Source: a virus
Lineage: Duplodnaviria; Heunggongvirae; Uroviricota; Caudoviricetes
Length of the DNA stretch: 22,254 nucleotides
Virus record (IMG/VR): IMGVR_UViG_2529292906_000020
Location: 1 to 22,254 of that record
Reading direction: 5' to 3' (one strand)
Shown: positions 18,338 to 18,930 of the stretch, one piece after another
Position numbering within the stretch: the stretch's first letter is position 1
Layout of the letters: each line of letters starts with the position of its first letter
Position numbers and translations under genes: made by a program
Notes under the pieces: model-generated
Databases searched by the model: none
Seen by the model: the letters and a program-made list of their open reading frames with translations, nothing else
Told to the model about the DNA's origin: nothing

Positions 18338-18850
18338 ATGACCACTATAACCAAAGAGCGACTGCTGACAATCAAGCAGTGGCGCGAAACATACGGACCG
18401 GGTAGCAACGTTGTGCTTCCAGCAGAAGAAGCGGAAGAGCTGGCACGGATTGCGCTGGCATCACTGGCAGCAGAGCCGGTGGCAAAGATTATAGCTCATT
18501 ACCCATTAGGAGTTGACGTAGGCAAACAAAAATTCGTACAGGCCATTAGAGAGCTTCCTGACTTTGGCGGATATCTATTTGCCGCCCCTCCAGCGCCGAT
18601 AGTGCCGGAAGAAATGTATTGGCAGGATGCGCCAGTTGAAGGCAGCAGCAAAGCGGCTGCATACGCTACAGGCTGGAACGATTGCCGCGAAGCCATGCTT
18701 CAGTCCGGAAACTTTCGGGAAAATAAAGATTCGTCAACCAATAATTTTCGGAAAATCCCGGAAGCGTCAACCAGCTCTCCGGTAACTCCGGATGGTTGGA
18801 TAAGCTGTAGTGAGCGAATGCCGGACGACAGGCAGGAGGTGAATCAATGA
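18338..18850 (+). CDS. Hypothetical prophage protein (170 aa), possibly DUF551-like
   Basis: AAGGAG before ATG; C-terminal motif PDGWISCSERMPDD. Confidence 0.55.
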   Translation: MTTITKERLLTIKQWRETYGPGSNVVLPAEEAEELARIALASLAAEPVAKIIAHYPLGVDVGKQKFVQAIRELPDFGGYLFAAPPAPIVPEEMYWQDAPVEGSSKAAAYATGWNDCREAMLQSGNFRENKDSSTNNFRKIPEASTSSPVTPDGWISCSERMPDDRQEVNQ

Positions 18851-18930
18851 GCTGGCCTGATGCAATCGTAACTCTGGGGGTGGTCTTCGCAGCAGCGTTT
18901 GTTGTGTTCTCGATTTGTCGATGGGGATAA
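18847..18930 (+). CDS. 27-aa hydrophobic single-TM peptide (MSWPDAIVTLGVVFAAAFVVFSICRWG)
   Basis: ATG overlaps upstream stop (ATGA); AGGAGG at 7-nt spacing; below ORF-track cut-off. Confidence 0.5.
   Translation: MSWPDAIVTLGVVFAAAFVVFSICRWG

Follow-up and report, generated by a model that had tools for sequence, protein, structure and literature searches.

A short open reading frame in the accessory region of an Escherichia coli lambdoid prophage is very probably a real, selected gene for a 27-residue membrane peptide, one member of a family that is widespread, uncharacterised, and of a familiar category. It lies on the plus strand of the window (the whole stretch of 22,254 nucleotides that was analysed), where it opens with an ATG at 18847 and closes with a TAA at 18928–18930, encoding the product MSWPDAIVTLGVVFAAAFVVFSICRWG. 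Since the window offers no earlier in-frame start, 27 residues represent the maximal length of this ORF. The start codon is preceded, across a 7-nt spacer, by the Shine-Dalgarno (SD) hexamer AGGAGG (18834–18839, plus strand), embedded in the final codons (R-Q-E-V) of the upstream gene, and it overlaps the stop codon of that gene (TGA, 18848–18850) in an ATGA tetranucleotide (18847–18850), a putative site of termination-reinitiation coupling. An earlier note on this DNA, made by reading the letters, had proposed a 27-codon gene at 18847–18930 with a strong ribosome-binding site, an overlap with the upstream ORF (18338–18850), a product consisting of one hydrophobic helix, and a location in a prophage accessory region. 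Each of these features was borne out, the helix by structure prediction, as described below, and the location by the surrounding early-left operon, which runs from a CI-like repressor gene towards xis.

Several properties of the sequence around the start codon indicate that it is equipped for translation. The AGGAGG hexamer occurs six times in the 22-kb window, counting both strands, and in all six cases sits 4–7 nt 5′ of a start codon, so that the motif appears to be in use here and not randomly scattered. Elsewhere in the window, two Ea22-like genes, which begin with GTG at 16845 and 17528, each have one of the six upstream of the start, and another is found before an ORF with ATGA coupling that begins at approximately 11285 on the minus strand. 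The RNA around the peptide start has a weaker fold than shuffled sequence (z = +1.86), which fits an open initiation region and speaks against an RNA element, and an Rfam search at the locus returned no family. No promoter-like or terminator-like sites flank the ORF in the window, nor was a minus-strand promoter-like site found that would give rise to a transcript across it. Among the 110 ATG-started ORFs of 20–40 aa in the window, the peptide ranks third in hydrophobicity.

The peptide is composed of an acidic N-tail (residues 1–5), a hydrophobic helix (residues 6–24, approximately), and an R-W-G C-tail. All variants follow this layout, with an M-x-W-P-D/E N-tail, a hydrophobic stretch of ~19 residues, and a C-terminal (C/F)-R-W-(G/R/W/E) motif. 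The mean Kyte-Doolittle hydropathy of residues 6–24 is 2.6 for the window peptide and spans 1.7–2.8 across the variants, and AlphaFold2 predicts a single helix for residues 3–26 with a mean pLDDT of 88. Replacements among copies are exclusively of the conservative hydrophobic type. Residues G11 and A15 constitute a small-xxx-small pair, and the conserved positions do not cluster on a single face of the helix (permutation p = 0.08–0.46). Small membrane proteins are delimited by a length of up to 50 residues with one predicted transmembrane helix and by a maintained coding sequence, and both descriptions apply to the peptide and its ORF. Searches of Pfam, NCBIfam, PHROGs, PADLOC, and the PDB sequence library found no significant match to the peptide. 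A HMMER search against 1.84 billion protein representatives identified seven clusters, all of them the same peptide, differing from one another by an alternative-frame extension, a frameshift, or loss of the stop codon (29, 46 or 53 aa), and no longer homologue was present among these representatives.

Conservation of the reading frame, which the earlier note had named as a check on its proposal, proved to be strong in two differently collected sets of copies. A degenerate pattern, in which only M1, W3, P4, D/E5, A6, G11, R25, and W26 were fixed and no stop codon was demanded, retrieved at least 119 viral contigs and, together with other loci, yielded 135 copies of the gene, corresponding to 55 distinct DNA sequences and 32 distinct peptides. 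The stop codon falls at exactly codon 28 in all 135 copies, without a single indel, and the ATGA overlap is likewise present in 135 of 135, whichever gene precedes. At residue 2 only S, T, N, and I occur, in agreement with the A-initial second codon that this overlap demands. Upstream of the start codon, 62 of the 68 distinct combinations of upstream sequence and ORF exhibit GGAGG with a distance to the ATG of 7 or 10 nt; the remaining six exhibit a 4-mer SD core. Variation is found mainly at third codon positions (entropies of 0.54, 0.39, and 0.93 for positions 1, 2, and 3, respectively), and the Nei-Gojobori pN/pS ratio is 0.34 in the peptide frame, whereas the two remaining sense frames give 1.0 and 1.8. 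Positions W3, P4, D/E5, A6, G11, R25, and W26 were set by the search pattern, so that their invariance within this set is partly circular; M1, W3, P4, A6, G11, R25, and W26 are, however, also invariant in a set of phages found via DNA similarity and independently of the pattern. To counter the ascertainment bias of the pattern, a flank-anchored scan was conducted that required an SD with ATGA and a DUF4222 gene start separated by a free gap of 70–95 nt. Of the copies collected in this manner 127/129 keep the 27-codon ORF and 2/129 are frameshifted, and rare P4R, P4S, and A6V variants appear. As a negative control, the pattern also produced 17 chance matches in unrelated high-GC genomes, and all 17 lack a stop at codon 28 as well as an SD, the ATGA overlap, and a hydrophobic core.

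The borders of the conserved unit emerge from comparison with more diverged phages. Matches of 70–76% identity, obtained by blastn against phage genomes, start at the SD (query position 33, window position 18832) and end at the stop codon (18930) or run on into the DUF4222 gene. The intact 27-codon frame with its ATGA is present in VT2-Sakai, BP-4795, Stx2a_WGPS2, Stx1_14040, and phage 19-1-2, in which the upstream genes differ. Over all loci, upstream genes belong to four clusters and downstream genes to 17, the latter with the DUF4222 gene, hok/sok, and toxin-antitoxin pairs among them, as well as opposite-strand KilA-N genes, and at some loci an intrinsic terminator directly follows the ORF; no gene is a constant neighbour across loci. 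As judged from these alignments, the SD and the 27-codon ORF (18832–18930, plus strand) form a mobile module, a maintained coding unit that moves among phages as a whole and becomes coupled to any gene that precedes it. A second small hydrophobic ORF was noticed at one locus (L130, reverse-complement, ORF offset 2048), located 35 nt past the peptide ORF and followed by a hok/sok locus. It encodes 34 residues (MSDDISLAMEGALAVIAVVGVYCLVVFLMDRLGN), is preceded by AAGGAGG with a 5-nt spacer to its ATG, occurs in ~15 IMG/VR loci in total, and is found in no family library and without a PHROG match. Its product is built like the 27-residue peptide, with a single helix between an acidic N-tail and a basic C-tail.

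Within the prophage, the peptide ORF is located near the distal end of an early-left accessory operon of the ‘exo-xis / ea’ type, the counterpart of that region in phage lambda, which leads from the immunity region to xis/int. The CI-like repressor gene (13222–13953) is followed by plus-strand accessory genes up to xis, a string that includes two ead/Ea22-like genes (16845–18064) shortly upstream of the peptide ORF and whose last members are the excisionase and integrase genes, separated by an inserted IS3 element. Directly upstream is a gene of 170 codons (18338–18850, plus strand; RefSeq ‘DUF551 domain-containing protein’, WP_000208033.1), whose 3′ end is the source of both the SD and the overlapping stop codon. 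The match between its product and the Pfam DUF551 profile is confined to profile positions 1–16 of 68. The protein ends in ...GWISCSERMPDD followed directly by RQEVNQ and the stop codon, while its full-length relatives contain ~50 extra residues before their terminal ...LPEPPQEVNQ. Nearly the entire DUF551 domain has been lost here in frame, and the final six codons, which harbour the SD and the ATGA overlap of the peptide gene, have been kept despite this loss. On the downstream side, a DUF4222 gene of 80 codons (18935–19177, plus strand; PF13973, E = 8e-14) begins 4 nt past the peptide stop, and its likely SD, GGGGA (18923–18927), is made by peptide codons 26–27 (TGG GGA); this arrangement of peptide and DUF4222 genes is found at 45 of 132 loci. 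The tightly packed chain continues with a hypothetical gene of 48 aa (19181–19327, plus strand) and the excisionase gene (19336–19572, plus strand). The IS3-family element (19740–20953), with two overlapping transposase ORFs and an ALIL pseudoknot (IS3 frameshift pseudoknot, 20021–20137), separates the latter from the integrase gene (from 21190), and the closest genomes contain no IS3 insertion between xis and int.

Relatives of the peptide gene were detected in at least 989 of 5426 complete E. coli genomes, a lower bound at the sensitivity of the 101-nt query, occupying 1318 places in these genomes, 149 of them on plasmids of ~95–110 kb. A tblastn search recovered the peptide from 226 plasmid records (Escherichia 194, Salmonella 29, Klebsiella 2, Shigella 1), most of them non-mobilisable replicons of 92–120 kb, which is the size of P1-like phage-plasmids. 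Phages carrying the gene include 933W, VT2-Sakai, Min27, and a Punavirus. The strict pattern, applied to representatives at one genome per species, recovered the gene only from E. coli, Shigella flexneri, one further Escherichia species, and two tiny contigs. The first of these contigs (L142, 431 bp, labelled Xanthomonas pisi) encodes a peptide identical to the VT2-Sakai variant, the second (L152, 369 bp, labelled Acinetobacter idrijaensis) a variant found in six other copies, and both copies most likely represent assembly contamination by E. coli prophage-type DNA.

Genes this short are routinely skipped by annotation. The earlier note had described the gene as unannotated, and this is correct for all the RefSeq and phage records inspected, none of which annotates the peptide ORF; RefSeq records 99.3–100% identical to the window in this region list the DUF551 and DUF4222 neighbours and leave an 84-nt gap between them. 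The description does not extend to some relatives, since GenBank lists sister variants under the names ‘hypothetical protein’, ‘bacteriophage protein’, or ‘putative prophage protein’ (AOM45384.1, ASL59396.1, ETI78407.1, CAL6704654.1, EIL24003.1), and one has reached RefSeq as WP_250221393.1. The last is a 45-aa call of an extended form, as some gene callers lengthen the ORF to 40–45 aa from an upstream ATG in an alternative frame of the DUF551 3′ end. The window's own variant has no exact match in a collection of 15 billion proteins. Two apparent longer forms were considered: the 40–45-aa extension is impossible in the window and in 933W, where stop codons intervene, and a longer frame in junction class 2 (P0047) was dismissed as the loci examined have upstream stops in the frame of the peptide. 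A fusion of the peptide to DUF551, suggested by protein clusters at 90% identity, was traced to clustering and labelling, as these clusters mix 27-aa peptides with unrelated DUF551 proteins of 121 and 185 aa that do not contain the peptide sequence. PGAP similarly names 30–31-aa contig-end fragments of the peptide frame ‘DUF551 domain-containing protein, partial’. Since the peptide has no match to DUF551 (PF04448) and the clustered DUF551 proteins lack the peptide, this label must derive from the overlapping upstream gene. No named gene for the 27-residue peptide was found in the literature, and the peptide strings do not occur in the accessible part of the supplementary text of the Entero67K Enterobacteriaceae preprint (PMC11188072). 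In the portion available of a ribosome-profiling catalogue for strain Sakai no ORF is shorter than 93 bp, so that the 84-bp peptide ORF probably falls outside its scope. The xis-int end of the Rac prophage of E. coli K-12 has no equivalent annotation gap, and K-12 ribosome-profiling data are therefore unlikely to help.

A course of events from transcription to membrane function may be proposed from this arrangement. As no promoter of its own is visible, the peptide gene would be transcribed solely as part of the early-left operon, once induction or infection has occurred, and ribosomes ending the upstream gene would reinitiate at the ATGA, aided by the SD. The product would then insert post-translationally into the inner membrane via YidC or SecYEG in the manner of the Pf3 coat protein or YohP, consistent with the post-translational insertion of proteins this short through SRP with YidC or SecYEG (review PMC12648545). 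By the positive-inside rule R25 would be cytoplasmic and the acidic N-tail periplasmic, resulting in an N-out/C-in orientation. Within the membrane the peptide would act by helix–helix contact, binding or modulating a membrane protein of the host or of the phage. Our leading, if tentative, interpretation is thus a small membrane-protein modulator operating early after induction or infection, by analogy with characterised bacterial proteins of such size (AcrZ, MgtS, CydX, KdpF), which act in this way. That no neighbour is constant speaks against an obligate complex with the product of an adjacent gene. The earlier note had also spoken of regulatory peptides, a reading that is plausible. A more specific version, in which the peptide is a dedicated effector docking on one host inner-membrane machine (FtsH/HflKC, a sensor kinase, or a transporter) and tuning the lysis-lysogeny decision or Stx-phage induction, has a smaller though appreciable chance of being correct, and, if true, would reveal an overlooked regulator common to lambdoid prophages and P1-like phage-plasmids.

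The analogy is drawn from the small inner-membrane proteins of E. coli (YohP, 27 aa; AcrZ, MgtS, CydX/AppX, KdpF, PmrR), which share with the peptide a length of up to 50 residues, one hydrophobic helix, a good SD, and a history of missed annotation. Characterised members of this group act by binding larger membrane proteins. To our knowledge the peptide has no sequence similarity to YohP, AcrZ, MgtS, CydX/AppX, KdpF, or PmrR, and, unlike theirs, its gene is carried by phages, forms part of an operon, and is coupled to the gene before it. A likeness of architecture may also be seen with the Pf3 coat protein and the M13 procoat, which combine the same short acidic N-tail and one helix with an arginine and aromatic residues at the cytoplasmic end. 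In the Pf3 coat protein this end reads ‘IRW’, to be compared with ‘CRW’ at the C-terminal end of the peptide. The likeness goes no further than architecture, as the peptide is shorter and does not belong to the virion of a filamentous phage. The exo-xis genes of lambda and Stx phages (orf60a, orf61, orf63, orf73, ea22) share its neighbourhood and presumed early-left transcription, but the products of that region are soluble proteins of at least 60 aa, unlike the 27-aa peptide; phage lambda itself is absent among the phage-database matches listed. In its general category the peptide joins the hydrophobic intergenic ORFs of 15–70 codons under purifying selection described in the Entero67K study (PMC11188072).

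Other explanations of the conserved ORF must be weighed against the modulator reading. Likeness to small membrane toxins, the other comparison drawn in the earlier note, found no support in the layout of the locus. A membrane-damaging toxin, whether type I-like (DinQ, TisB, Hok) or an early ‘kill’ function, active after induction, by which the host membrane is depolarised or permeabilised, would account for a size and hydrophobicity resembling those of type I toxins (DinQ, 27 aa; TisB, ShoB, Ibs, Hok/Gef), whose ORFs are shorter than ~60 aa and which also occur in prophages, and for the position of the gene in a prophage accessory region. The gene adjoins hokW/sokW in 933W, and a hok/sok module is found ~154 nt downstream at 40 of 132 loci, demonstrating that such cargo does collect at this position. 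We nevertheless consider a toxin unlikely, since the regulatory features that define type I systems were not found at the locus: Rfam recognises no antisense RNA family and no antisense promoter-like site overlaps the ORF, and in place of an own promoter and a structured leader that hides the SD there is a strong, exposed SD within the upstream coding sequence (with the weak folding noted above). The ORF is translationally coupled in an operon, as the invariable ATGA attests, and is not a self-contained cassette, and its product begins with an acidic segment, whereas the N-terminus of type I toxins is typically basic. No Pfam family, toxin families included, reaches its gathering score, and membership in Hok/Gef finds no support in Pfam or NCBIfam, the hok gene of 933W being a separate gene downstream. 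A role in superinfection exclusion or in defence against competing phages, through interference with the entry of DNA or with a component of a membrane receptor, would likewise suit a small membrane protein from a variable accessory region of a prophage, a frequent location of exclusion genes, and P22 SieA and HK97 gp15 are known to exclude by such interference. This role is decidedly improbable, however, because exclusion is needed in the lysogen, where the peptide gene, having no visible promoter of its own, is probably silent; in addition, PADLOC offers no match, and known exclusion proteins are far longer than 27 residues.

It may further be asked whether the peptide is the selected feature at all. 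Were only translation or the DNA itself of consequence, the ORF could serve as a ribosome relay or a recombination linker encoding a functionless peptide, an idea to which the chaining of the genes (ATGA upstream, 4 nt to the DUF4222 start), the likely DUF4222 SD formed by codons 26–27, and the mosaic breakpoints at the ORF borders lend some substance. It is nonetheless very improbable, since purifying selection acts on the amino-acid sequence, in which only conservative hydrophobic replacements are seen, and the ORF is kept where hok lies 154 nt away, where a terminator follows directly, or where the neighbours are on the opposite strand; retention of the peptide sequence where nothing is coupled downstream argues against a mere relay, and R25 and W26 are kept in 933W and VT2-Sakai, neither of which has the DUF4222 gene. 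The least credible alternative, one that we can hardly entertain, assigns the selection to an antisense ORF of 82 aa (18767–19015, minus strand) or to a structured or regulatory RNA. The antisense frame is stop-free in 55 of 55 distinct sequences and has a pN/pS of 0.38, a value that pN/pS cannot separate from the 0.34 of the sense frame with which it shares third positions. Such sharing between sense and antisense frames is a known mirror effect, so that the antisense frame would reflect the signal of the sense frame. Its open length varies from 37 to 145 codons without a fixed start or stop, it would overlap two well-supported plus-strand genes, and its only PHROG match covers 18 residues outside the peptide region, while an RNA element is contradicted by the lack of an Rfam family and by a fold less stable than that of shuffled sequence. 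The fixed start, SD, and stop, together with the coinciding borders of the module, identify the sense ORF as the conserved unit.

About one fifth of complete E. coli genomes, or more, carry the peptide gene, which nonetheless has no family entry in the libraries searched. Its carriers include the medically important Shiga-toxin phages 933W and VT2-Sakai and the P1-like phage-plasmids of several enteric genera, and with its recognition the accessory region beside xis/int, a poorly understood region that influences prophage behaviour, gains a further gene. Small hydrophobic phage ORFs are to be expected and no long-standing question is opened by this one, but it provides small-protein research with a well-defined candidate that has strong evolutionary support. 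Two further groups of elements were observed elsewhere in the window. In the minus-strand stretches 11900–12088 and 12254–12961, a C4 antisense RNA (81 bits) and an isrK RNA (62 bits) are located directly downstream of an Ant-like anti-repressor gene, and this set constitutes a P1/P7-type immunity element within the lambdoid prophage. The sRNA STnc100 (139 bits) adjoins three tRNA genes (1495–2011, minus strand), a layout characteristic of Stx-type phages at the entry to the late region.
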